From the NCBI GenBank assembly GCA_041660105.1, contig JBAZWZ010000002.1:57964-121963 (forward strand): 64,000 bases of DNA, in the 5' to 3' direction. The translations under genes were made by a program, and so were the position numbers. The notes under the pieces are model-generated. The model saw only the letters and a program-made list of their open reading frames with translations. It did not search any database and had not been told where the DNA came from. Below are positions 4,373 to 61,542 of the stretch, piece after piece (the first letter of the stretch is position 1; each line of letters starts with the position of its first letter). Source of the stretch: Minisyncoccota bacterium (lineage in GTDB: Bacteria > Patescibacteriota > Minisyncoccia > Phycocordibacterales > UBA1550).

Positions 4373-6268
4373 ATGTGTGGCATTGTTGCAATCATCACGA
4401 GTAGAAAACGAAATCTCGTCCCTGAGATTGTTTCGTCGCTCAAAAATCTTGAATACCGTGGCTACGACAGCTCGGGTATTGCCATTCTTGACCAAGGAAA
4501 GATCAAGCGTGTTCGCCGTGTTGGTGCGCCGAGTGATGTTTTTCCGCCTGATGAAATCACAAATGAACTCGCTGTCAGCGATTTAGGATTCTCTCTTGCT
4601 CTCGGACACAACCGCTGGGCGACACACGGGAAGCCCTCACTTGGAAACGCTCACCCGCATTTTGATTGTGCTGGTGAAATCGCTGTGGTTCACAATGGAA
4701 CTATCCTCAATCACGAAACCTTAAAACAAGAGCTCGTGAAGCTCGGACACACTTTTACTTCGACGACCGATACGGAGGTCGTCCCGCATATGATAGAGCA
4801 GAAAATGAAAGAGGGCTTATCTCTTAAAGATGCCTTTCTTGACACCGCAGCGCTTCTCGAGGGGAGCTTTGGACTTGCTGTCATCTCTACAAAAGAGCCA
4901 GGAAAACTTTTTATCGTTAAGCGCGGAAGTCCACTGCTCTTTGGCATTTTGAAAAACACCATCATCGCTGCGTCGAGCTCAAATGCAATTCTTTCATACA
5001 CCAACACATTCATTCCGCTTACCGATTGCGAATATGCTGAGTTTGCTATTGAGGGCGATGAGGTGACCTATCGCATCGGCACCACCTTCAACAAGAACCA
5101 GACCATCAACAAACCAGTGGAAACAATTACCGACCACTCACTCGCTGATATTTCAAAAGGTGGCTACGACTCATTTATGAAAAAAGAAATCCACGCACAG
5201 CCTTCTGTTTTTCGTACGACCATTCTCGGACGCTACGACGAGAAAACAGGAGACGCTGTCTTGGGTGGACTCATTGACCACGAAGACACGTTGAGGAGCG
5301 CGAAAGCAATCCTCACTGTTGCGTGTGGCACCGCACACAACGCATCCCTCGTTGGCGGAGCGCTCATCGAGACACTTGCGGGTATCCCCGTGAGAAGCGA
5401 AATTGCGTCGGAATTTCGCTATAAGAAAGTTCCTCTCGACCCAAAAGACACGATAATCCTTGCCACAAGTCAGTCAGGCGAAACAGCAGACACCCTCGAG
5501 TCAATCAAGGAGGCGAAGAGAAAAGGGTATAAAACATTTGGTATCGTAAACGTCGTCGGCAGCGCCATAGCCGAAGAAGTCGACGCGGGAGTATACGCGC
5601 GCGCTGGTGTCGAAGTGGGGGTCGCCTCCACAAAAGCTTTCACGGCGCAACTCGCAATATTTTATTTGCTCGCGATAAAATTTGCACGCGAGCGGGGGAT
5701 GACGGCCCAAGAAGGTCGCGCGCTCATCGCAGAGCTTGAGCAAATCCCTGAGCTTATGATGAAGACTCTTGCTGACACAGAAAAGAGAGTGATTGCCCTC
5801 ACAGAGCGCTACACGGCAAAAAATATTCGTGTGATTAATTTCCTCGGGCGTGGTATCAATGTGCACGTAGCCACCGAAGCAGCGCTCAAGTTTAAGGAAC
5901 TCACATACCTCGAAGCAGGAAGCTATCCGCTTGGCGAGCTCAAGCATGGGCCTATCGCTGTCATTGATGAAAATTCCGTCTCGGTGATCCTTATGCCGCA
6001 CGACGAACTCTTTGCGCAAAACAAAAATTCGCTTGAGCAAATCCTCTCCAAGAATGGCAATGTCATCGTCATCACTGACGAACTCGGCGCGCAAAATCTC
6101 AAAGAACAAAATGTCGACATCATCACCATCCCCACACTCAAGCATTCACTCATGTACCCACTTCTTGAGATTCTTCCCCTTCAACTTTTCGCCTATCACT
6201 ACGCAGTCGCTCTCGGAAACAATGTCGACAAACCCCGTAACCTTGCAAAATCAGTGACGGTGGAGTAA
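4373..6268 (+). CDS. glmS: glutamine--fructose-6-phosphate aminotransferase
   Basis: MCGIVAI... gives the N-terminal nucleophile Cys. SIS domains are present and the C-terminus reads DKPRNLAKSVTVE. Confidence 0.9.
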   Translation: MCGIVAIITSRKRNLVPEIVSSLKNLEYRGYDSSGIAILDQGKIKRVRRVGAPSDVFPPDEITNELAVSDLGFSLALGHNRWATHGKPSLGNAHPHFDCAGEIAVVHNGTILNHETLKQELVKLGHTFTSTTDTEVVPHMIEQKMKEGLSLKDAFLDTAALLEGSFGLAVISTKEPGKLFIVKRGSPLLFGILKNTIIAASSSNAILSYTNTFIPLTDCEYAEFAIEGDEVTYRIGTTFNKNQTINKPVETITDHSLADISKGGYDSFMKKEIHAQPSVFRTTILGRYDEKTGDAVLGGLIDHEDTLRSAKAILTVACGTAHNASLVGGALIETLAGIPVRSEIASEFRYKKVPLDPKDTIILATSQSGETADTLESIKEAKRKGYKTFGIVNVVGSAIAEEVDAGVYARAGVEVGVASTKAFTAQLAIFYLLAIKFARERGMTAQEGRALIAELEQIPELMMKTLADTEKRVIALTERYTAKNIRVINFLGRGINVHVATEAALKFKELTYLEAGSYPLGELKHGPIAVIDENSVSVILMPHDELFAQNKNSLEQILSKNGNVIVITDELGAQNLKEQNVDIITIPTLKHSLMYPLLEILPLQLFAYHYAVALGNNVDKPRNLAKSVTVE

Positions 6269-6316
6269 AACTAGGCACAATCTACTATTCTGCGCATGTG
6301 CTAAAATAGGGGAATT

Positions 6317-7147
6317 ATGGCGAAACAGCCCAAACTTAGTCCTAGGCAGATAATGTTCTTCCAGGCTCAAATTTGGGCCTTTTACGGGGTATCAGGCAGG
6401 AGGAATCTACCTTGGCGAAAGACAAAAAACCCTTACAAAATAATGGTTTCTGAAGTAATGCTTCAGCAGACGCAGGTCTCGCGCGTACTCGTAAAATATC
6501 CTGAATTTTTAAAGGCTTTTCCGACTGTTGAGACACTCGCAAAAGCACCTTTATCTCAAGTCCTCAAAGTCTGGCAGGGGATGGGGTACAACCGTCGCGC
6601 GCTCGCGCTCAAGCGTATGGCGGAAAAAATAGTTGCTGATTTCAATGGAAAAGTTCCACGAGCGCGACTCGACCTCGAATCACTTCCTGGAGTCGGCCCA
6701 TACACCGCAGGCGCCGTGCGTGCGTTTGCATTTAACGAGCCAGAAATATTTATTGAGACAAATATCCGTAGAATTTTCATTCATCATTTTTTCATAGACA
6801 AAGAGGGAATTAGCGATCGAGAAATTTATCCACTCGTCGAAACTACCCTCGACACAAACAATCCGCGCGAGTGGTACTGGGCACTTATGGACTACGGATC
6901 ACACTTACCAAAGATTGCGCGCAAAAATTCAAATACACAAAGCAAACACTATGTAAGGCAAAGCAAGTTTAAGGGTTCTCTCCGTGAGCTCCGCGGGAAA
7001 ATAATACGCGCGCTTGGAGACAAGCCGCAAACTCTTGTATCACTCAAGCGCGCATGCAACAATGACACAAGGATAAAAGAGGCACTGGACGCACTCACAA
7101 AAGATGGCCTCATCACCTATGAAAAAAGAAAATACCAACTTGCCTAA
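6317..7147 (+). CDS. HhH-GPD DNA glycosylase, MutY-like, lacking the Fe-S cluster loop
   Basis: LPWRKTKNPYKIMVSEVMLQQTQV and GVGPYTAGAV match the MutY catalytic domain. No Cys4 cluster and no NUDIX-like C-terminal domain follow. The MutY catalytic Asp position reads E (IETNI). Confidence 0.7.
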   Translation: MAKQPKLSPRQIMFFQAQIWAFYGVSGRRNLPWRKTKNPYKIMVSEVMLQQTQVSRVLVKYPEFLKAFPTVETLAKAPLSQVLKVWQGMGYNRRALALKRMAEKIVADFNGKVPRARLDLESLPGVGPYTAGAVRAFAFNEPEIFIETNIRRIFIHHFFIDKEGISDREIYPLVETTLDTNNPREWYWALMDYGSHLPKIARKNSNTQSKHYVRQSKFKGSLRELRGKIIRALGDKPQTLVSLKRACNNDTRIKEALDALTKDGLITYEKRKYQLA

Positions 7148-7751
7148 GATTTTGAGAACACTCAAAATACTTTACCCTAACCCCGCATGCGCCCTTCACT
7201 ACACGAAGCCGTGGGAGCTTCTCGTTGCGGTCATTCTTTCTGCACAGTGTACTGATAAAAAAGTGAATGAAGTTACAAAGGTATTATTCAAAAAATACAA
7301 AACGCTTGATGATTATGTCGCCGCAAAACCTGCAGAGTTTGAACAAGATATTCATGCGACAGGATTTTATCGCGCAAAGACAAAAAATATTCTTGCTGCG
7401 GCAAAAGTTTTGAAATATGATTTCGGTGGAAAAATCCCAAAGACAATGAGTGAGATGATCACTATCCCTGGCGTCGGCAGGAAAACTGCCAACGTGGTCT
7501 TGGGTGAGCTCTACGGCACCGCAGAAGGAATCGCAGTCGACACCCACGTTATTCGTTTGTCACAACTCTTTGGATTGACAAAGAACACCGACGCAACCAA
7601 AATAGAGCAGAACCTGATGCAGATTGTTCCCAAAAAAGATTGGGTGAGTTTTTCGCATATGCTCATCCTCTATGGACGCGAGCACTGCACCGCGCGTTGT
7701 AAACACACTGACTGCCCACTGAAAGATTTTGTAATACGTGCTAATATGTAA
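7119..7751 (+). CDS. nth: endonuclease III
   Basis: ELLVAVILSAQCTD, GVGRKTANVV, DTHV and the C-terminal C-x6-C-x2-C-x5-C (CTARCKHTDCPL) motifs. The start overlaps the preceding gene. Confidence 0.85.
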   Translation: MKKENTNLPKILRTLKILYPNPACALHYTKPWELLVAVILSAQCTDKKVNEVTKVLFKKYKTLDDYVAAKPAEFEQDIHATGFYRAKTKNILAAAKVLKYDFGGKIPKTMSEMITIPGVGRKTANVVLGELYGTAEGIAVDTHVIRLSQLFGLTKNTDATKIEQNLMQIVPKKDWVSFSHMLILYGREHCTARCKHTDCPLKDFVIRANM

Positions 7752-7758
7752 GGACTTT

Positions 7759-8958
7759 ATGGAAACCTCAGACCATTTACTTACAAACAAGGAGCTTCGA
7801 AGGGGATTTTTTGGCCTCTACTTTGGTCGCATGGCGATGTCTGTCGCAAACGGCCTTATTGGAATATTTCTTCCTATTTTTCTCTACAACCTTCTCGACG
7901 GAAATGTATCCCTCATAATGCTTTATTATGGGCTAACAGGACTCGCGTATGTTTTCCTTGTAGCATTTGGCGCACAGTTTCTCAACAAATTTGGATTTCG
8001 CAGATCTCTCGTTCTCGGAAGTTTTTTGGCAGCGGTGGTCAACGCAGCATATTTTTTTGTTACAAAAGAAAATGCCTTTCTGCTTTTGTCATGCTCGCTT
8101 GTTGCGCTCGTACTCTTTCGAATGTTCTTTTGGATTCCGTTCCATGTCGACTTTGCAATTTTTACCAACAAGGGAAAGAAGGGTGGGCAAGTGGGGCTTA
8201 TGCTTGGAACAATGACGCTCGTCGGCATCGCAGGGCCTATGATCGCAGGATACATCATTCAAAACTGGTCGATGCAAGTGCTCTTTTTTATCGGAGTCTT
8301 GGTTTATATATTAAGTATGATTCCGTTCAAGATGGTGCCACGCACCAATGAGCGTTTCAGCTGGACCTACAAAAAAGTATGGCAAGAACTTTTTGCAAAA
8401 AAGAATAGGGGAATCGTGTGGGCATCGGTAGCAGTAGGAGCTGAGGATATCATCGGCTTTACAATCTGGCCTATCTTTATTTTCGTACTACTCAAGGGCA
8501 ACTATTTTCAGGTTGGTGCACTCGAAAGTTTTATTGTTGGGATCACCGTGCTCTTGCAACTAATGTTCGGTCGCTACCTTGACCGCATAGAGAAGAAACA
8601 CAGAACACTCAGGATGAGTAGCGTCCTATATGCGTTCGGATGGATTATCAAAATTTTTGTTGCAACCGCAGCCCAAGTATTTGTCGTTGGACTCTACCAC
8701 AGGATAACCAAAGTGCTGACTGACACTTCATATGATGCTATCTTTTACGAGACAGCAGCGGACCAAGGGCACTACGTAGATGAGTATACCGTCCTGAGTG
8801 AAATGGCAATAAACATCGGGAGGGTAGTCGGGACTGGAGCAGTAGCAATCCTTTTGGTATTTTTGAGCCTCAAGTGGACATTCATCGTTGGGGCTGCAGC
8901 TTCGCTCGTATTTATTACGCTTTCTGCAACGCATCAGATGAACGAGAAGCGCGCTTAA
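7759..8958 (+). CDS. MFS-type transporter (multi-TM)
   Basis: About 12 predicted hydrophobic helices and a GRxxDR-like loop (GRYLDRIEKK). Confidence 0.6.
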   Translation: METSDHLLTNKELRRGFFGLYFGRMAMSVANGLIGIFLPIFLYNLLDGNVSLIMLYYGLTGLAYVFLVAFGAQFLNKFGFRRSLVLGSFLAAVVNAAYFFVTKENAFLLLSCSLVALVLFRMFFWIPFHVDFAIFTNKGKKGGQVGLMLGTMTLVGIAGPMIAGYIIQNWSMQVLFFIGVLVYILSMIPFKMVPRTNERFSWTYKKVWQELFAKKNRGIVWASVAVGAEDIIGFTIWPIFIFVLLKGNYFQVGALESFIVGITVLLQLMFGRYLDRIEKKHRTLRMSSVLYAFGWIIKIFVATAAQVFVVGLYHRITKVLTDTSYDAIFYETAADQGHYVDEYTVLSEMAINIGRVVGTGAVAILLVFLSLKWTFIVGAAASLVFITLSATHQMNEKRA

Positions 8959-26456: not shown

Positions 26457-26548
26457 CATGTGACATTTAACAAGTGACATGTGACGAGCAACTTTTTCGC
26501 TATGCGAAAAAGTTGCTGTCAGTTGTCAGATGTCAGTGGTCAGTTGTT
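26457..26548. repeat. intergenic palindromic repeat element (TGACAT repeats + GCAACTTTTTCGC-tat-GCGAAAAAGTTGC hairpin + CTGTCAGTTGTCAGATGTCAGTGGTCAGTTGTT)
   Basis: Perfect 13-bp hairpin flanked by imperfect inverted ends (AACAAGTGACATGTGAC / GTCAGTGGTCAGTTGTT). It fills the dnaK-dnaJ spacer and related copies occur elsewhere in the window. Confidence 0.55.
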
Positions 26549-29257: not shown

Positions 29258-29812
29258 TTAGGAGCCTTTTTCTTTTCTACTGGTGCGGGCAATATATGTC
29301 TTTATATTTTCCAGATTATCGTAATATTCCGACCCAATTCTCTTATACAATGACGAAGCTCGTTTTTTGTCGGGAAACAATATCTTCTTAAACCTTTTTT
29401 CCTCAATGAGAAAATCAACTATGGCTTTATAATCGCCATCCCCAGACACTAAAATTACATCCTGGAAATCTTCTTTTCGATATAATCTTTTCATTATCGA
29501 AAAAATAATATCAGAATCAACATTTCCCTTTTTGCCACTTATCAATGCTTCGCTGTGTTGTCTAAACTTTAGAATAAAGCCAGAACTTTGAATATATTCA
29601 TAAATCTCTTGCGCCCTTTCTGTGTCTTGAATATATCCAAGGTGATAGAACGCCACTTTAACATTATATTTGTCGGCAAGATAAACCCGAAATCTCTTTA
29701 GGTCAATCTTCCACGGATCGACTTCCCTCTTCGCTGTCCCCATGTGCAAATTCTGCCCATCGATGAATGCATAATTTTTGAGTTCTTTGTTCATGGTTTC
29801 AATTCCTAACAT
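29258..29812 (-). CDS. NYN-domain (LabA-like PIN-fold) putative nuclease
   Basis: AFIDGQNL...VDSDI...VSGDGDY acidic residue pattern of NYN domains. Start uncertain (29812 or 29794). Confidence 0.7.
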   Translation of the reverse strand: MLGIETMNKELKNYAFIDGQNLHMGTAKREVDPWKIDLKRFRVYLADKYNVKVAFYHLGYIQDTERAQEIYEYIQSSGFILKFRQHSEALISGKKGNVDSDIIFSIMKRLYRKEDFQDVILVSGDGDYKAIVDFLIEEKRFKKILFPDKKRASSLYKRIGSEYYDNLENIKTYIARTSRKEKGS

Positions 29813-29825
29813 TATCCCACCATTA

Positions 29826-29910
29826 CACATTAAAAGAAAGAGTGGATTGCAATGCAATCCACTCTTTCTTAATTTTGTCTCTACCAATGGAGTTTGAAAA
29901 TCAAAGGTAC
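29826..29910. repeat. 85-bp hairpin repeat, copy 1 (AAGAAAGAGTGGATTGCA / TGCAATCCACTCTTTCTT stem + conserved 45-bp tail)
   Basis: Near-identical to 31064-31148, with compensatory loop changes that preserve the stem. It lies just 3' of the Fic gene. Confidence 0.6.
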
Positions 29911-29948
29911 CTGACCGCTTATTCTTGAGAGTCCGTGGCGAATATTGA

Positions 29949-31010
29949 TTAAATCCTTACATACCTCGTTCCCCTGCCACGGCCGATACGCTTTACTTTT
30001 CCAAGCTCGACGAGACGCTCGAGGGATTTTCTTACGGTCGCGGTAACCATACCAGTTGCACTCGCAATTTCCGCAGGGCTCGCCTCGTGGACTGACGCAA
30101 AGAATTGTAGAACCTCGCTTTGTTTTGGTGATAGGCCTTCCTCGTGTTCCCTTTCCACAAGCGCTAGCGCTCTCACTGCCTGTTCCTTTACGATAGACAA
30201 AAAGAAATTAAGCCAAGGCACGATTGAACTATTTTCCGTCTTAAATGTTTTCTGTGCTTCACGCAGAGCAAGATAGTATTCATCTTTACGTTTCTCGACG
30301 AGTTGCTCGTGCGAGACGTATTGCACAAATGTATAACCAGAGCGAAGGAGAAGCATATTGGTGAGCACACGTGAAAGGCGCCCATTACCATCTTCAAATG
30401 GGTGAATCTTCAAAAACTCTATAAGGAAATTTGCAATAATGAGGAGTGGATGAAAGCGCTTCTTCTCAAGAGCTTCATGTGTCCACAGGACGAGCTCGGT
30501 CATTTCTGCGGGTGTCTGCCATGCGGGGGTTGTTTCGAACACAATACGTACGACTTTGCCGTCTTCGCCGAGCACTCCAACTACATTTTCTTTCTTTTTG
30601 TATTCACCCCTGTGTAGGTCGTCTTTGGTTGAATATTTGAGAAGTTCTTTGTGAAGCGATTGAATAGTACTTTCACGAAGTGCCAGTGTTTGAAAACTAT
30701 CAAAAACATTTTGCAGTGTTTCGAGGTAGCCTTGTACTTCCTGGGAATCGCGGTCTGCGAATTTAGTAATTGAAAGCCCCTGCATTATCTTTTTCACTTC
30801 CTCGTCAGAAAGTTTTGATCCTTCGATACGAGTCGATGCACCTGCTGATGTCACGAGAACCGACTTTCGAAGATTGGTAATTGCCTGTGGCGTCATACGA
30901 ACACCAACACGGAAAACACCACGGGCCTCGTCTATCGCTGCCAAAAGAGCCACAATATGAGGCTCGGGGGTGTTTATTCGGTGGTCAAATTTTCGTGCGT
31001 TATCGTCCAT
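29949..31010 (-). CDS. Fic-family protein (putative AMPylase) with C-terminal wHTH
   Basis: Canonical HPFEDGNGRLSRVL Fic motif. An N-terminal STRIEG (S/T-x-x-x-E-G/N) inhibitory-helix motif suggests class II. Confidence 0.85.
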   Translation of the reverse strand: MDDNARKFDHRINTPEPHIVALLAAIDEARGVFRVGVRMTPQAITNLRKSVLVTSAGASTRIEGSKLSDEEVKKIMQGLSITKFADRDSQEVQGYLETLQNVFDSFQTLALRESTIQSLHKELLKYSTKDDLHRGEYKKKENVVGVLGEDGKVVRIVFETTPAWQTPAEMTELVLWTHEALEKKRFHPLLIIANFLIEFLKIHPFEDGNGRLSRVLTNMLLLRSGYTFVQYVSHEQLVEKRKDEYYLALREAQKTFKTENSSIVPWLNFFLSIVKEQAVRALALVEREHEEGLSPKQSEVLQFFASVHEASPAEIASATGMVTATVRKSLERLVELGKVKRIGRGRGTRYVRI

Positions 31011-31063
31011 ATTTAGTGATACTATCTAACATATGAGATTTTATCACATTTTATTAGATAAAG

Positions 31064-31148
31064 CAAAGAGTGGATTGTCGAAGACAATCCACTCTTTCTT
31101 AATTTTGTCTCTACCAATAGAGTTTGAAAATCAAAGGTACCTGACCGC
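31064..31148. repeat. 85-bp hairpin repeat, copy 2
   Basis: Direct repeat of 29826-29910, upstream of the Fic start. Confidence 0.6.
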
Positions 31149-31254
31149 AATATTCTAGGTATCTACTCATACGGACGATAGTACTGTATAAGTAGATACC
31201 TGGTGCACAAAGCTGGATTTCCTTCACTTTTTTCCGTAGTTCCCTAGTATATAC

Positions 31255-31300
31255 AAAATTTTAGAGATGTGGATTTCAAAAGGGTGCCCAATCCCCTTTC
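31255..31300 (+). repeat. 40-bp direct repeat, copy 1 (AAAATTTTAGAGATGTGGATTTCAAAAGGGTGCCC...)
   Basis: Repeated at 32095-32134 and includes an AAAGGG...CCCTTT hairpin. It lies 50 nt upstream of a 240-aa ORF. Confidence 0.55.
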
Positions 31301-31347
31301 TTCGAGTTCTGGTAACCGAGGAGCTTTAAGAGTACACTTCCTAATAT

Positions 31348-32070
31348 ATGGCAGGAAGAAAAGAAAAATCTGTTTCTGGTTCAGACCTAGCACATCCTCA
31401 TGATGTCGGTGTTACTGTGACATTTAATCAGATAGTCATTCATCCAACTTACGGCACAATACTGCTACCTGTTTATGATCACACAGACTTTTACTTTAAG
31501 TCTGCCGAATCTGCTCTGATCGAAGCCAAAAAATATCATGAAAAAATACTATCCAGCCCCGTTAATAAATCAAATTGTCGAGTCGTTTATTCAGAAAGTA
31601 CAGACTTGCCTGCATTTTTTATGTTTTCACAAAATGTCGTTATATATTCATATTTAGCTCTTGAGTACTTTGCTATAAGTTGTGCTCAATCAGTTAATAA
31701 GGTTAAGGAGTGGGAAAAGAGAAGACTAGACCAAAAATTAAAATATCTTATACAACAGGAACTTGGTATCCCTCATCTTTCTCCTGATCTTTGTAGTGCG
31801 TTTGGTGAACTTGAAAATAGAAGACACTCTTTGAACCATCCGACTATAAAGAACATAACTAATGGTCACCCTACAGAATGGGATTCTGCACATCTTGCCT
31901 GGTTAATGGTTGGGAACTATGAAAAAGTATATTTATCTGCTAAGAAAATTTATGAGGAAATTCGTAAACCTCTAATAGAATACAATAAGAAAAAACCTCA
32001 GGGTGAAGTTACTCTCACTGGAGTTAAAAGAGGTATTAAGTTTGAAAACCCAGCCAAGAAATCTTTATGA
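31348..32070 (+). CDS. hypothetical protein (240 aa), no recognisable domain
   Basis: Clean ORF on the strand opposite its neighbours, flanked on both sides by the 40-bp direct repeat. Confidence 0.6.
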   Translation: MAGRKEKSVSGSDLAHPHDVGVTVTFNQIVIHPTYGTILLPVYDHTDFYFKSAESALIEAKKYHEKILSSPVNKSNCRVVYSESTDLPAFFMFSQNVVIYSYLALEYFAISCAQSVNKVKEWEKRRLDQKLKYLIQQELGIPHLSPDLCSAFGELENRRHSLNHPTIKNITNGHPTEWDSAHLAWLMVGNYEKVYLSAKKIYEEIRKPLIEYNKKKPQGEVTLTGVKRGIKFENPAKKSL

Positions 32071-32094
32071 AACAATGGTGTTACCACTTCACGC

Positions 32095-32134
32095 AAAATT
32101 TTAGAGATGTAAATTTCAAAAGGGTACCCCCTTT
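32095..32134 (+). repeat. 40-bp direct repeat, copy 2 (AAAATTTTAGAGATGTAAATTTCAAAAGGGTACCCCCTTT)
   Basis: Lies between the convergent 240-aa ORF and the protease gene. Contains the AAAGGGTACCCCCTTT hairpin. Confidence 0.55.
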
Positions 32135-32141
32135 ATCAAAC

Positions 32142-33518
32142 CTATTCACAAAAATATGACCCACCAGAAGTCTCAAGCTCCTTTTCTTTTGAGACTGTTA
32201 TTACTATTAAATCTTTCGCTAATTTAGTGTATTTTTCCTCTTCCTCCTGTAACGATTTTAAATAGATATCTGAAGCACTGGACTCCAAACCCTCCACGAA
32301 TTTAAGTGTACTTTCTGCTTCTTTTATTCTATAACCAATTGCTTCCTTTCGTAATTTTACGACATCACTCATGACACCAGCAATAGATGAGGGTATATTA
32401 TTTGGTATGAGACTAGGCAGACTATCAAATGTTTTGCTTGCTATCTTAAAATTAGTAAGTGCATTTTCTAGGTCAGTATGTGCACCATCAATATCAATGT
32501 CTCCTATCTTCTTATACACGAAAAGTCCATTTATTATTCCTTTATTCATGCTGTCTGAACCCCTGCTCAAGGTTGAAATAAAAGACAGATAATTTTGTTT
32601 TTGATTCTCGGTATAAGTACAACTGCTCGAATACGCCGTCGTCGAACCTGGGAGGATCGTATTTTTGCCTTGTTTCAAATACGGGAGCCATGTTTTTACG
32701 ATATCAACCGGAATAGCAAATTTGATTGTTTCTCCCAAAATGACACCCTCAATCTGTTTGCTACTATAAATTGCAGTATTAATACCTACCACCTGACCAT
32801 AACGGTTTATTAAAGGTCCACCACTATTCCCTGGGTGAATTTCAGCAGAAGTTTCAAGGTAATTTTCAATTCGTCGTGAAATCGTCCCTTCCTTGAAACT
32901 CACATCTCCTTCAAGTCCAAATGGAAATCCGAAAGTAAAAACATTTTCTCCTTGAGGAAGCGACTCTTCATCAGAATTTCCAAATTTAATTATCGACAAA
33001 CCATTTTTATTTACTTTCAATAGAGCCAGATCATGAAGTTCATCCCTGCCAACAACAGTTGCTAAGGCGTAATCACTATTACTAAAAGTAACATCAGCTC
33101 TGTTGACCCCACTAATAACATGGGCGTTCGTTAAAATATATCCATTGGGCTCTATTACAAAACCACTACCACTTCCTTCAGATGTTTTTATGTAAACTAC
33201 CGCAGGCTTTACCTTTTTAATTAAATCCGTATTACCCAAAACACCAGTTGACGTTGTAGTAACTTCTTTTTTTACGGAAGGAGCATTCGTATTAGATGAA
33301 TGTTGCCCCTTTTTAAGTTCATCAACTTCTTGGCGTAGTTTTTCAATTTCCGAAAGTTGGGGGGTTGTGCTCGCTTGCTTGTCGCTCTTGGAAGGATTTT
33401 CTGCTTGGTGGATTTGATATTGTACTACTCCAAAATATCCGCCACCCCCTAAAACCAAAACGCTCGCAACAGCCACGAGAAGTATTGGTATTGGGATAAA
33501 TCCTCCTTGATTTTTCAT
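32142..33518 (-). CDS. membrane-anchored trypsin-like (S1) serine protease with uncharacterised C-terminal domain
   Basis: N-terminal TM. GSGFVI...TNAHVI (His), DLALLK (Asp) and GNSGGPL (Ser) motifs. No obvious PDZ, and about 190 aa of unknown C-terminal sequence. Confidence 0.75.
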   Translation of the reverse strand: MKNQGGFIPIPILLVAVASVLVLGGGGYFGVVQYQIHQAENPSKSDKQASTTPQLSEIEKLRQEVDELKKGQHSSNTNAPSVKKEVTTTSTGVLGNTDLIKKVKPAVVYIKTSEGSGSGFVIEPNGYILTNAHVISGVNRADVTFSNSDYALATVVGRDELHDLALLKVNKNGLSIIKFGNSDEESLPQGENVFTFGFPFGLEGDVSFKEGTISRRIENYLETSAEIHPGNSGGPLINRYGQVVGINTAIYSSKQIEGVILGETIKFAIPVDIVKTWLPYLKQGKNTILPGSTTAYSSSCTYTENQKQNYLSFISTLSRGSDSMNKGIINGLFVYKKIGDIDIDGAHTDLENALTNFKIASKTFDSLPSLIPNNIPSSIAGVMSDVVKLRKEAIGYRIKEAESTLKFVEGLESSASDIYLKSLQEEEEKYTKLAKDLIVITVSKEKELETSGGSYFCE

Positions 33519-33540
33519 TTAAATTATTATCCCACAAATA

Positions 33541-33600
33541 CACATTAAAAGAAAGAATTGGACTGACTGCTGAAGACAGTCCGTCCAGTTCCTTCTTTTA
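33541..33600. repeat. hairpin element related to the 85-bp repeat (CACATTAAAAGAAAGA... nested stems)
   Basis: Shares the CACATTAAAAGAAAGA lead and a long imperfect stem. It lies upstream of the protease gene start. Confidence 0.4.
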
Positions 33601-33709: not shown

Positions 33710-34540
33710 ATGGACCCAAATACCTATAAATTTCTCTACGACTGGCAGCAATTAATCGGTGCGTTTCTTGGACCATTTCTTGCAATTATTTTTTCTTCAT
33801 TAAGTTTTTATATTACGTGGTTAATTGGGAAATGGAGAAGATACAGAGAAACATTTCGAAAAATTGAGGTTCACACTACATACGCAATGAATAGCACGGT
33901 CTCAATGCAGGATAAACTTACAAGCTTTGTTAATCAAGCAAAAAAACTAGTAGCTGACATCAGGGGGATAACTAATCCAAATGAATTTGCTCTTCATACC
34001 ATTAATTTCCCCGCATTGGGTGAAATCCACCTTTTTTCAGAGGCGCCAGATATTGGAGTTAGAAGTTACTTTTTACACAACAAGCTTCTCTGGGCGCACT
34101 CAAGCACAAAAGATCTTAATTCAATACTGGGAACATTTTCAGACGGTTGGTCTCATATAATTAATTTAAATAATCGCCTCATCGACCTTACAAAAGACAC
34201 ACCAAATCCAACATTTCAAAGAGGACAATATGCAGAAAATATAGAAATTTTTTGTAAAGAAATTGAGAGGTTTTCTAATGATGACTTATCAAAAAACTTG
34301 ATAACACTTTCTCAAATAAAAATATACAACGAGATGCTGAGGCAGTCATATTTTGTCGGTAGCTATAATTTATGGAAGAATGAAGGCCTGAGTTTCAAGT
34401 ATTTTCGTACTTACTCAGAACATAAAGCATTTTCAAGAAACCTCGAAAGTATTGAAAGGATTGAGGGAATCATCCAAGACGAAACTACTAAACTTTTATC
34501 GGAAATTGAAGAAAGGCACAAAAAAATCAACAATATATAA
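33710..34540 (+). CDS. hypothetical membrane-anchored protein (276 aa)
   Basis: N-terminal TM helix (LIGAFLGPFLAIIFSSLSFYITWLIG) and a soluble remainder with no recognisable family. Confidence 0.5.
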   Translation: MDPNTYKFLYDWQQLIGAFLGPFLAIIFSSLSFYITWLIGKWRRYRETFRKIEVHTTYAMNSTVSMQDKLTSFVNQAKKLVADIRGITNPNEFALHTINFPALGEIHLFSEAPDIGVRSYFLHNKLLWAHSSTKDLNSILGTFSDGWSHIINLNNRLIDLTKDTPNPTFQRGQYAENIEIFCKEIERFSNDDLSKNLITLSQIKIYNEMLRQSYFVGSYNLWKNEGLSFKYFRTYSEHKAFSRNLESIERIEGIIQDETTKLLSEIEERHKKINNI

Positions 34541-38719: not shown

Positions 38720-38925
38720 AAGGGCTTTGCCTCGCAAAGCCCACAACTGACAGCTAACACCGCTTACGCGGACATCTGACCGCTGATTTTCGCTTCGCGA
38801 AAATCAGCGGTAATGGTCAATTATCACACGTTTTTTGTCAAATGTTCCCCAAAATCCCCCGTGCCACTATCTAATAATCTATCCCCTGTCAGTTGTTATA
38901 TGTCAGTGGTCAGTTGTTCCCCTCT
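38720..38925. repeat. composite intergenic palindromic element (two hairpins plus inverted ACAACTGACAG ends, GTCAAATGTTCCCC module)
   Basis: Hairpins GGGCTTTGC-ctc-GCAAAGCCC and CCGCTGATTTTCGC-ttc-GCGAAAATCAGCGG. ACAACTGACAG at 38743 is inverted relative to CTGTCAGTTGTTATATGTCAGTGGTCAGTTGTT at 38886-38918. Related to the element at 26457-26548. Confidence 0.55.
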
Positions 38926-59821: not shown

Positions 59822-59953
59822 TTACACAAGACCCTTCAGAAAACTTTTGCGGTGATGCTTGGTGATGCCATTCTTTTTTATTGCTTCGTAGTGTGCGCGG
59901 GTACCGTAGCCTTTGTGTTTTTCAAAACCGTACGCAGGAAACTTTTTTGCAAA
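59822..59953 (-). pseudogene. duplicated 3'-terminal fragment of rnhB (about 42 codons plus stop)
   Basis: The nucleotide sequence is about 85% identical to 60942-61071. It translates to ...[43 protein letters not shown] against rnhB ...[44 protein letters not shown]. Confidence 0.65.
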
Positions 59954-60308
59954 TATGGAAAAGAAAAAGCGCCGTACCAAAAGGTCGTGCGCTCTTGTAT
60001 TTGATGCAGTTACTTGGGAATGTACGTAATTGTTACGTACATCGTGGCGTCGCTCGAAATTGAAGTGGCCACGGAAATGCATTCCTTAACATTCTCTGAA
60101 AGAAACTTTTCCACACCTTTCTCCATTTCATCAAATCTTCCCACAGTATGGCGTGGTTGAGTGAGACAGAACGAAAGCACTTTGCACTTAGGCATCACAT
60201 ACTCCTTAGTTGTGTATGTTCACGGCGACGTGCCAGTGACTCATATGAATTAACAGTAGCATTTTAGTATAATTTTGTCAAGTGCTACAAGACTTTTGCT
60301 ACAGAACT

Positions 60309-60929
60309 TTAAAAATTGCGCCCACAATTTTTTCTTGCTATCAAAACCTCAGCATTATTCACCATAGGAGTCCCGTCCGTACGATTTCGCAATGCACGGG
60401 AGTCCATCTTGTCATAGGCAATAATCTCCCAGTCATTATATATTTCTTTTAGTTCATTTGGTTTGGGATAAAAATTTTTTGTTGATGGATTCTCATTATA
60501 AAAATCTCCCTCTGCCGTAAGAACCGATACGACGTTGAAACCACCAGCCCTTGTTTTTTCTTTCATCTGTTCTATGACTTTTCTTGCAGCAAAATCAGTG
60601 ATGTGCTGAAAAACATAAGAAACTACAATAACATCATAACTCTGGATAACACCAATTTCGACTATGTCTGCAATATGTGAACGAACAACCAAGTTTCTCT
60701 TTTTAGCCTCTTTTTTAAACTTCTCAACTCCAACCCTAGAAAGATCAATGAGTGTAACTTGAAATCCAGCGTCTGCAAGAAAAAGTGCATTTCTCCCTTC
60801 TCCTCCACCTATGTCCAATACTTCGCCACTCTTAATTAACTCTGTAATTTTTTTTACAGCTTGCTGTGGTTTCCCTCCCCTAAAATCAATATTTGGGGTC
60901 GCATAAATTTCATCATATTTATTACTCAT
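60309..60929 (-). CDS. SAM-dependent methyltransferase, TehB-like
   Basis: VLDIGGGEGRNALFLADAGFQVTLIDLS (motif I) and overall similarity to tellurite methyltransferase TehB. It lies between the two rnhB 3' copies. Confidence 0.75.
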   Translation of the reverse strand: MSNKYDEIYATPNIDFRGGKPQQAVKKITELIKSGEVLDIGGGEGRNALFLADAGFQVTLIDLSRVGVEKFKKEAKKRNLVVRSHIADIVEIGVIQSYDVIVVSYVFQHITDFAARKVIEQMKEKTRAGGFNVVSVLTAEGDFYNENPSTKNFYPKPNELKEIYNDWEIIAYDKMDSRALRNRTDGTPMVNNAEVLIARKNCGRNF

Positions 60930-60933
60930 CTGT

Positions 60934-61542
60934 TTATTCTACCACACCCTTCAAAAAACTTTTCCTGTGATGCTTGGTTATGCCGTTCTTTTTGATAGCT
61001 TCGTAGTGCGCTCGGGTGCCGTAACCTTTGTGCTTTTCAAAACCGTGCTCAGGGAACTTTTTTGCAAGAAGTGTCATACGAGCATCGCGCGCGACTTTTG
61101 CCACTATTGAAGCAAGGGCAATAGCAAGCTCCTTTTCGTCGCCCTTTATAATAGTTTCTTGATTCTTGTAATGCTCTGGTGCATAGAGCGAACCATCAAG
61201 AAGAACTTTTGCCTCATCGACATTGTGCTCGATTGCTTCGAGTGAAGCAATCATCGCCGTGCGAATAGCAGACGAAAGTCCCCTTTTATCAATCACGCTC
61301 GGCGCAACAAAAGAAACTGCGCACGAGAGATATCCGAGAGACTCAGCTTCTTTGATTTTGAGTAACCATTCTTCCCTCTTTTTGGGGGTGAGTTTTTTTG
61401 AGTCTTTTATAATAGGAAAAAGTTTTTCAACCTTCTTTTTGTGTTCAGCATAAATACACACAGCGCCGACAGCGACCGGCCCAGCAAGAGGTCCACGACC
61501 AACCTCATCGACACCAATTATGTATTTATACTTCTTCTTCAT
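60934..61542 (-). CDS. rnhB: ribonuclease HII
   Basis: IIGVDEVGRGPLAGPVAVGAV catalytic DEDD motif region, 202 aa. Confidence 0.9.
   Translation of the reverse strand: MKKKYKYIIGVDEVGRGPLAGPVAVGAVCIYAEHKKKVEKLFPIIKDSKKLTPKKREEWLLKIKEAESLGYLSCAVSFVAPSVIDKRGLSSAIRTAMIASLEAIEHNVDEAKVLLDGSLYAPEHYKNQETIIKGDEKELAIALASIVAKVARDARMTLLAKKFPEHGFEKHKGYGTRAHYEAIKKNGITKHHRKSFLKGVVE

Follow-up and report, generated by a model that had tools for sequence, protein, structure and literature searches.

The window analysed here, a stretch of DNA 64 kb in length that comes, by the source names recorded for the identical protein, from a Candidatus Paceibacterota MAG, contains a gene for a protein of 240 amino acids that is surrounded mostly by genes of the opposite orientation (Table 1). 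In order along the window, dnaJ, dnaK and grpE, all on the minus strand, are followed by minus-strand genes for a NYN protein and a Fic protein, by the 240-aa gene on the plus strand, and by a gene for a trypsin-like protease on the minus strand. Beyond the protease lie a gene for a 276-aa membrane protein (plus strand) and then rpsI, rplM, rplQ, rpoA, rpsD and rpsK (all minus strand). The block from 29.1 to 34.7 kb has a GC content of 0.34 to 0.38, with the Fic gene at 0.46, whereas dnaK and rpoA have 0.49 to 0.50. Because its GC content is low relative to these two genes, the block is an accessory island set between core genes, from grpE to rpsI. Within the island, the 240-aa gene (GC 0.36) differs in composition from the Fic gene.

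The reading frame given for this gene in the preliminary description of the DNA is borne out, running from ATG to TGA on the plus strand with 240 codons. The same description had called it the only plus-strand gene in its neighbourhood, which is incorrect: the 276-aa gene is likewise on the plus strand, and gene calling reports it in L021 as well, which was assembled independently from a different sequencing run. L021 also carries the protease, the 240-aa gene and both copies of the direct repeat that brackets it, with the sequence unchanged. Since it spans the gene and both repeats, the arrangement is not an assembly artefact. Upstream of the start codon lies a short block, GAGTACACTT, whose counterpart at the locus of the closest homologue (L011) is GAGTACAATT; in an alignment, this is the sole non-coding stretch common to both loci. 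The TACACT within the block could be a -10 element. A general promoter scan gave no enrichment relative to shuffled sequence.

Table 1. Genes, repeats and motifs of the accessory island, with positions numbered from the first letter of the window
Feature	Position	Strand	Evidence or remark
Fic-bracketing direct repeat, copy 1	29829-29925		About 97-104 nt, with an 18-bp perfect palindrome; unrelated to the HEPN repeat
Fic-wHTH gene, active site HPFEDGNGRLSR	29949-31010	-	Pfam Fic, E 1.5e-17; PADLOC SoFic, E 2.4e-44, full length
Fic-bracketing direct repeat, copy 2	31053-31156		64-nt core 98% identical to copy 1
Direct repeat of the 240-aa gene, copy 1 (46 nt)	31254-31299		Second version of the protease terminator region, distal to the protease; matches copy 2 at 38 of 41 aligned bases
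Upstream block GAGTACACTT	31330-31339	+	9-18 nt 5ʹ of the ATG; alignment with L011
240-aa gene	31348-32070	+	ATG-to-TGA ORF; putative metal-independent RNase, stand-alone, HEPN superfamily, no profile model
Rx4H motif codons (R159-H160-S-L-N-H164)	31822-31839	+	74-member alignment
Direct repeat of the 240-aa gene, copy 2 (41 nt)	32094-32134		Terminator-like region of the convergent protease gene
Membrane-anchored trypsin-like serine protease gene	32142-33518	-	Trypsin_2, E 4e-33; convergent with the 240-aa gene
276-aa membrane protein gene	33710-34540	+	ORF list; gene call in L021

The 240-aa protein matched no Pfam, NCBIfam, PADLOC or PHROG model (no Pfam family at E ≤ 10 and no family among the PADLOC-DB v2 system models at E ≤ 1), and sequence-profile searches of the PDB returned noise only. 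Neither tblastn of the protein against phage and plasmid collections nor a fold search of BFVD (at E ≤ 0.001) gave a match. Nine close homologues, 47% to 100% identical, are found in MAGs of Paceibacterota, Nomurabacteria, Acidoferrales and Bacteroidota; scans of genomes and metagenomes with an alignment of these nine sequences gave no loci beyond those already known. A profile search of 1.84 billion representative sequences extended the family to 123 clusters at 50% identity (E ≤ 0.001), nearly all of about 240 aa and matching end to end. Against the closest homologue, non-synonymous divergence (pN) is 0.15 while pS is 0.77, with synonymous sites saturated, which marks the reading frame as a real gene under strong purifying selection. 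Because copies 47% to 60% identical are spread over Paceibacterota, Nomurabacteria, Acidoferrales and Bacteroidota MAGs, the gene was likely acquired horizontally and is likely accessory.

The signature of HEPN RNases is Rx4-6H with a polar residue (N, D or H) directly after the arginine, located at the C-terminal end of helix 3 (PMC3710099). In an alignment of 74 family members (19% to 76% identical), just two columns are invariant, R159 and H164, each present in all 74. The surrounding consensus is E-[IL]-x-x-x-R-[DHN]-x-[ILV]-x-H-P, in which residue 160 is D in 35 members, H in 26 and N in 9 (together 70 of 74) and the proline at position 165 is present in 72. The AF2 model of the window protein has a pLDDT of 94.9. 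Its core is an up-down bundle of four helices (residues 45-68, 86-115, 146-163 and 190-215), with an insert between helices 2 and 3 and a small sheet from the N- and C-termini (strands 8-11, 27-32, 36-41 and 229-232) that caps the core. In this model, R159-x4-H164 lies at the C-terminal end of helix 146-163, which is helix 3. A further HEPN feature, a second conserved acidic residue in helix 2 (Ex3[KR]), is seen only in part: position 106 in helix 2 is acidic or glutamine in 64 of the 74 members (E 33, Q 26, D 5), with no clear K or R four residues on. When the 74 members were searched against Pfam, HEPN was the sole recurring theme among the sub-threshold matches: two members matched HEPN_RiboL-PSP (best E 1.5e-4), and Swt1 and Apea were matched by one member each.

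The family is concluded, from alignment and model together, to be a previously unmodelled member of the HEPN superfamily with an intact catalytic motif, because the Rx4H pair is invariant, position 160 is polar, the AF2 model places the motif at helix 3, and HEPN recurs among the Pfam matches. The earlier statement that the protein has no recognisable domain thus stands for sequence profiles and fails at the level of structure: the structure prediction that had been proposed as a check, combined with the conserved motif, yielded a HEPN domain. By analogy with characterised HEPN enzymes, the 240-aa protein is most likely a metal-independent endoribonuclease, and the gene probably encodes a stand-alone HEPN ribonuclease of the defence or toxin type. 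Such a protein would probably act as a dimer, would probably be kept inactive until triggered, for example by phage infection, and may serve as a single-gene toxin or abortive-infection-type effector.

Among known HEPN superfamily RNases, the HepT toxins of HEPN/MNT systems (PDB 5yep, 7ae2 and 8xdj), TT1696 and AF0298 share with this family the Rx4H motif that closes helix 3 and has a polar residue next to it. However, these proteins are about 130 aa in length, whereas the family described here is about 240 aa and has additional conserved strands at the N- and C-termini (H18, G21, G36 and R228-G229) as well as a pair of tryptophans (W178 and W185). Sequence identity to the structural matches is only 5% to 13%, and, in contrast to HEPN/MNT systems, no MNT antitoxin is adjacent. 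A weak sequence resemblance, seen in a few family members, connects the family to RiboL-PSP-HEPN, Swt1-like (Abi2) and ApeA proteins (PF18735, PF18731 and PF18739), which occur in restriction-modification (R-M) or defence neighbourhoods (PMC3710099). Homologues of the window protein likewise have such neighbourhoods and likewise consist of a single polypeptide. Unlike those families, no member of the present one reaches a gathering score for a Pfam HEPN family (74 searched), and the window protein has no match to them at E ≤ 10; the beta-rich N-terminal domain of roughly 300 aa found in ApeA is also absent.

The preliminary description grouped the 240-aa gene with the adjacent Fic, NYN and membrane protease genes into a possible toxin/immunity or defence module. 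The genes are physically adjacent inside a low-GC island, the Fic protein matches the PADLOC SoFic model, and both NYN and HEPN belong to the nuclease folds often met in conflict systems. The proposed check of co-occurrence was run on 11 independent homologue loci (L001, L003, L006, L009, L010/L011, L018-L020, L024, L025 and L027), and in their fetched flanks there is no Pfam match to Fic or NYN. Moreover, all-against-all BLASTP of the neighbouring proteins found no neighbour common to the homologue loci. In the window, promoter-like or terminator-like elements are separate for each of the genes, the Fic and HEPN genes differ in repeat pair and in GC content, and the 240-aa gene is convergent with the protease, whose family is widespread in CPR bacteria (343 matches at E ≤ 1e-30). 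The absence of co-occurrence largely refutes the module, which is now very improbable. Instead, Fic, NYN and protease are independent neighbours in an accretion island and not partners of the HEPN gene. Fic is a separate single-gene insert bracketed by repeats of its own, and it may itself be a defence gene, independent of the HEPN gene.

The homologues occupy variable, mobile or defence islands without a conserved partner. The closest homologue has a type IIG R-M gene (E 2e-145) and a DrmD-like PLD-SNF2 helicase gene 1.3 kb away, and other loci hold genes for TIR/SEFIR proteins, serine recombinases, rolling-circle Rep, DUF2726, PIN and weakly HEPN-like proteins. Within the insert, there is neither a second conserved ORF nor an antitoxin; no nucleotidyltransferase (MNT) gene lies beside the 240-aa gene in the window or at any homologue locus, and no antitoxin or sensor for the HEPN protein is evident. 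The earlier guess of a toxin- or defence-like gene fared better than the module, drawing support from the HEPN fold, the invariant Rx4H, the low-GC island and the adjoining SoFic-matching Fic gene.

Some HEPN domains are non-catalytic or serve housekeeping roles (PMC3710099), and no partner gene was seen here; the protein could accordingly be an RNA- or nucleotide-binding or RNA-processing factor outside biological conflict, or else a toxin whose antitoxin, an RNA or a distant gene, has escaped recognition. Strict invariance of the arginine and histidine argues for catalysis, and a housekeeping role fits poorly with a distribution so sporadic and with loci in islands. For a toxin–antitoxin system, the lack of an adjoining MNT gene at every locus speaks against a protein antitoxin of that kind, and no Rfam family reaches its gathering score anywhere in the island, which disfavours an RNA antitoxin. 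Both variants are considered quite unlikely next to a stand-alone effector.

Two imperfect direct repeats bracket the gene. AAAATTTTAGAGATGTRRATTTCAAAAGGGTRCCC is found exactly twice in the window, at 31255-31289 and 32095-32129, and a pair of matches arose in none of 100 dinucleotide shuffles. A repeat search returned a 36-nt pair with 92% identity, and in a gapped alignment the two copies differ by 3 mismatches and, within the loop of the hairpin, a single 5-nt indel; the longest perfect identity is 17 nt. The hairpin motif AAAGGG...CCCTTT, reported earlier for both copies, is indeed present at 31279-31284/31294-31299 in copy 1 (9-nt loop) and at 32119-32124/32129-32134 in copy 2. Read on the minus strand, copy 2 forms the hairpin AAAGGG-GGUA-CCCUUU (-10.9 kcal/mol). 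This hairpin starts 7 nt past the stop codon of the protease (32142-32144), and UUUUGAAAUUU comes after it. The 6-bp hairpins are not more stable than those of shuffled sequences: on the minus strand, z is -0.78 for this copy 2 hairpin and +0.79 for the other, and the plus-strand values are -1.94 and +0.77.

The repeats had been described as the gene's own. They are instead the duplicated terminator region of the neighbouring protease gene, and not functional elements of the 240-aa gene. Because copy 2 is the 3ʹ end region of the protease and copy 1 is a second version of it on the far side, the 840-bp unit looks like an insertion in the 3ʹ flank of the protease, with that flank duplicated. 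Several other identities for the repeats were rejected. ARAGORN found neither a tRNA nor a tmRNA in the window, and an origin from either was set aside. An Rfam search of 28.5-35.5 kb gave five sub-threshold hairpin matches at chance level, none within or next to the HEPN insert, and a riboswitch or small RNA was dismissed for want of any match at gathering score. IMG/VR viral contigs contained no match to the HEPN repeat and none to the Fic repeat; with the tblastn and BFVD searches of the protein also without a match, a phage or plasmid origin was discarded as well.

Repeat-bracketed inserts of this kind were found five times, three in the window and two in other Paceibacterota contigs. An unrelated 46-nt repeat, its copies 91% identical, lies on both sides of the closest homologue of the 240-aa protein (76% identical; L010/L011). 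In L011, each copy runs into a 13-bp perfect hairpin, the downstream one overlapping the stop codon of a convergent gene; two compensatory pair changes separate the hairpins, both of which fold strongly (z about -6.5). In L001, a 41-nt promoter-like repeat (93% identical) surrounds a 2.18-kb segment of four genes that include a homologue and a DUF2726 gene. The second insert in the window is the Fic gene, in whose repeat the hairpin apex differs between the copies and is fully paired in both. The third is a TehB-like methyltransferase gene at 59.8-61.1 kb, bracketed by a 127-nt repeat (87% identical) that is the 3ʹ end of an RNase HII gene. The more distant homologue loci have no bracketing repeats.

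The RNase HII repeat is the most informative, since it is coding. Between its copies, 13 codons have synonymous changes only and 4 have amino-acid changes, against an estimated ~26 synonymous and ~103 non-synonymous sites. Because the changes are mostly synonymous, both copies must have been functional genes, kept by purifying selection in separate lineages while they diverged; one evolved elsewhere and came with the insert. The 127-nt repeat is therefore no target-site duplication made in situ. The compensatory hairpin changes in L011 and in the Fic repeat point the same way. This argument from synonymous bias is direct for the RNase HII/methyltransferase insert alone and may be carried to the HEPN insert by analogy.

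These comparisons bear on two other accounts of the repeats. In one, they would be target-site duplications left by a transposition-like insertion at a staggered cut, the cassette being a non-autonomous transposable element. The repeats do bracket the insert directly, their sequence varies by locus as target-derived sequence would, and the geometry of a hairpin plus about 30 nt is alike in the window and L011. Nevertheless, repeat lengths of 41 to 127 nt are far above those of known target-site duplications. The insert ends show no terminal inverted repeats, the insert contains no transposase ORF, and the 10-nt block 5ʹ of the ATG is the one motif common to the non-coding ends of the inserts in the window and L011. 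Moreover, the copies are 87% to 93% identical, rather than identical, in four of five cases (up to 98% over all). The synonymous bias of the RNase HII differences and the compensatory stem changes in L011 indicate divergence under selection before the copies were joined. A transposon with target-site duplication was rejected on these grounds, and transposition of any such form is regarded as distinctly improbable.

In the other account, the repeats would be reused regulatory elements, such as bidirectional terminators or insulators, that arose by local duplication without any mobility, and the gene would be an old resident. Copy 2 plausibly terminates the protease transcript, and a terminator- or promoter-like character is also seen in the remaining bracketing repeats of the island and in that of L001. 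Yet similarity between the copies extends about 30 nt past the hairpin, where no role is obvious, and the window hairpins are thermodynamically unremarkable. Bracketing is also seen again around other cargo genes, in one case by a coding 3ʹ end, and the cargo is atypical in GC content and patchily distributed across phyla. Regulatory reuse is thus considered unlikely.

Given a probability of roughly 0.6, the reading favoured here is that the 240-aa gene encodes a HEPN effector and was acquired horizontally as a single-gene insert, with the repeats as attL/attR-like scars and the neighbouring genes independent. A small circular DNA would have brought a diverged copy of the protease-terminator sequence, and a single crossover (Campbell-type integration), either homologous or catalysed by a trans-acting site-specific recombinase, would have placed a single-gene insert of ~0.8 kb just downstream of the protease terminator. 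The two repeats of 41 to 46 nt would then be two versions of the terminator region. The 17 nt of perfect identity is short for RecA-type recombination. An empty site would read as the protease stop codon, one copy of the repeat, and then directly ...GTATATACTAGGGAAC. A search by way of protease homologues found neither an empty site nor a circular junction, the closest other homologue being only 57% identical and located on a 2-kb contig; three other contigs with this protease, from the same population, all carry the insert. Att-like integration of small inserts without an integrase is the likeliest origin, one that for the HEPN insert we infer.

Elements of comparable architecture are known. 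CIMEs (cis-mobilizable elements) keep attL and attR and have no recombinase gene (PMC5704250), and the microcin H47 island of E. coli, which depends on functions of its host, contains 'extensive and imperfect direct repeats' (PMC3191183). The HEPN insert likewise has imperfect direct repeats around cargo without a recombinase, and shares with these elements an accretion in tandem at a target gene's 3ʹ end. Unlike them, the inserts described here are only 0.8 to 2.2 kb in length with one to four genes, and their sites are terminators, promoters and the 3ʹ end of a protein gene rather than a tRNA gene; their mobility is presumed. A HEPN gene as single-gene mobile cargo also has precedent, in the integron-cassette HEPN family (PDB 3jrt; PMC3710099). 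In contrast to that family, no attC is shared here, each insert has its own target-derived repeat pair, and no intI was seen among the island genes. An integron cassette was consequently rejected: the repeat pairs of the inserts are unrelated, with no attC common to neighbouring cassettes, and Pfam found no integron integrase or recombinase among the five island proteins.

A family of ~240-aa proteins annotated everywhere as 'hypothetical' can now be given, as predictions, a fold, a catalytic motif and an activity open to testing. Little is known of the defence repertoire of CPR bacteria, and the window protein is a candidate for a new HEPN RNase effector of the single-gene kind in this group. 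The recurrent repeat-bracketed inserts in Paceibacterota are a more unusual by-product of this analysis than the HEPN gene, and the five cases point to recurrent, recombinase-less addition of single genes in these tiny genomes. A broader proposal, that Paceibacterota build defence and accessory islets by a cassette accretion not described before and that the 240-aa protein founds a new family of single-gene HEPN abortive-infection proteins, is speculative and rather unlikely. If true, inserts of 0.8 to 2.2 kb with one to four genes and no integrase would enter at terminators, promoters and gene 3ʹ ends by recombination over only about 40 to 130 nt of diverged homology, leaving bracketing repeats behind. 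If general, this would help to explain how accessory islands form in CPR bacteria, and would provide a sequence signature for recent gene gains in MAGs.

At the L011 locus, a tRNA-Gln gene and a remnant of a tRNA 3ʹ end are located upstream of the insert. In the window, a promoter repeat of 31 nt (29811-29841 and 33526-33556) brackets the protease, HEPN and Fic genes jointly; because it encloses all three together, it suggests nested, stepwise accretion.

Acquisition of genes between direct repeats, in which a cargo gene would enter by a single, att-like crossover that leaves the repeats as scars, may extend beyond the gene for the putative HEPN RNase. Within the same low-GC island, the Fic gene is bracketed by a repeat pair of its own and differs in composition from its neighbours (GC 0.46 versus 0.36). 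Each copy of this repeat contains a perfect palindrome of 15–18 bp; the apex sequence is not the same in the two copies, and the pairing is complete in both. A further, shorter repeat (TCTTTCTTTTAATGTGTAWTKGTGGGATAAT on the minus strand) has a promoter-like sequence and brackets the whole protease–HEPN–Fic segment, an arrangement that is consistent with nested accretion, the stepwise build-up of the island by successive inserts. Because the extended −10 element of this repeat lies only about 9–20 nt ahead of the NYN and protease start codons, its position suggests that the predicted mRNAs of both genes are leaderless or near-leaderless.

Features of the window, with positions in window coordinates
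Feature	Position	Strand	Remarks
33-nt repeat CTGTCAGTTGTCAGATGTCAGTGGTCAGTTGTT	26516-26548 and 38886-38918		94% identical; two distant sites
Promoter-like repeat, 31 nt	29811-29841 and 33526-33556		directly upstream of NYN and protease genes, respectively
Fic-bracketing direct repeat, ~100 nt	29829-29925 and 31053-31156		separate pair, Fic's own
Fic-wHTH gene	29949-31010	minus	full-length PADLOC SoFic match, E 2.4e-44
276-aa orphan gene	33710-34540	+	N-terminal transmembrane segment; GC 0.34
Direct repeat, 127 nt	59826-59952 and 60941-61067		87% identical; brackets TehB-like SAM-methyltransferase gene
Repeat-bracketed insert	59953-60940		carries TehB-like methyltransferase gene
TehB-like SAM-methyltransferase gene	60309-60929	minus	
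RNase HII gene	60934-61542	minus	

At the RNase HII gene, the 127-nt repeat is a second copy of the final ~42 codons. The two copies differ synonymously at 13 codons, whereas only 4 codons carry amino-acid changes; judged by this pattern, one of them is a foreign 3ʹ end, imported together with the methyltransferase insert.

The 276-aa gene is the second orphan of the island. Its product had no match in Pfam, PADLOC or NCBIfam, and its sole match in PHROG was non-significant (E 0.14). Outside the island, the first copy of the 33-nt repeat covers the final two bases of the dnaK ORF, in the stop codon, and runs into the dnaK–dnaJ spacer; the repeat may serve as a shared regulatory element.

Repeats also accompany HEPN homologues on two other contigs. 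In a Paceibacterota contig, a 41-nt direct repeat (5489–5529 and 7668–7708, 93% identical), itself promoter-like (TTGTAA-N17-TAAACT), encloses a 2.18-kb, four-gene segment that includes the homologue and a DUF2726/DUF559-like nuclease gene. At the locus of the closest homologue, a tRNA-Gln(CTG) gene with encoded CCA (1877–1950) is followed 56 nt on by a remnant resembling a tRNA 3ʹ end (GGGTTCGAGTC...CCCAGCCA, 2006–2038), which suggests that the tRNA gene was the target of a previous integration; both lie directly upstream of the repeat-bracketed HEPN insert. In a Nomurabacteria contig, several HEPN-like genes may be clustered beside the genes for a serine recombinase, Rep and tRNA-Glu, since the 318-aa gene directly downstream of the homologue (6303–7259) has weak HEPN_RiboL-PSP and Csx1-HEPN matches and is followed by a Hypoth_Ymh gene (7312–7824).
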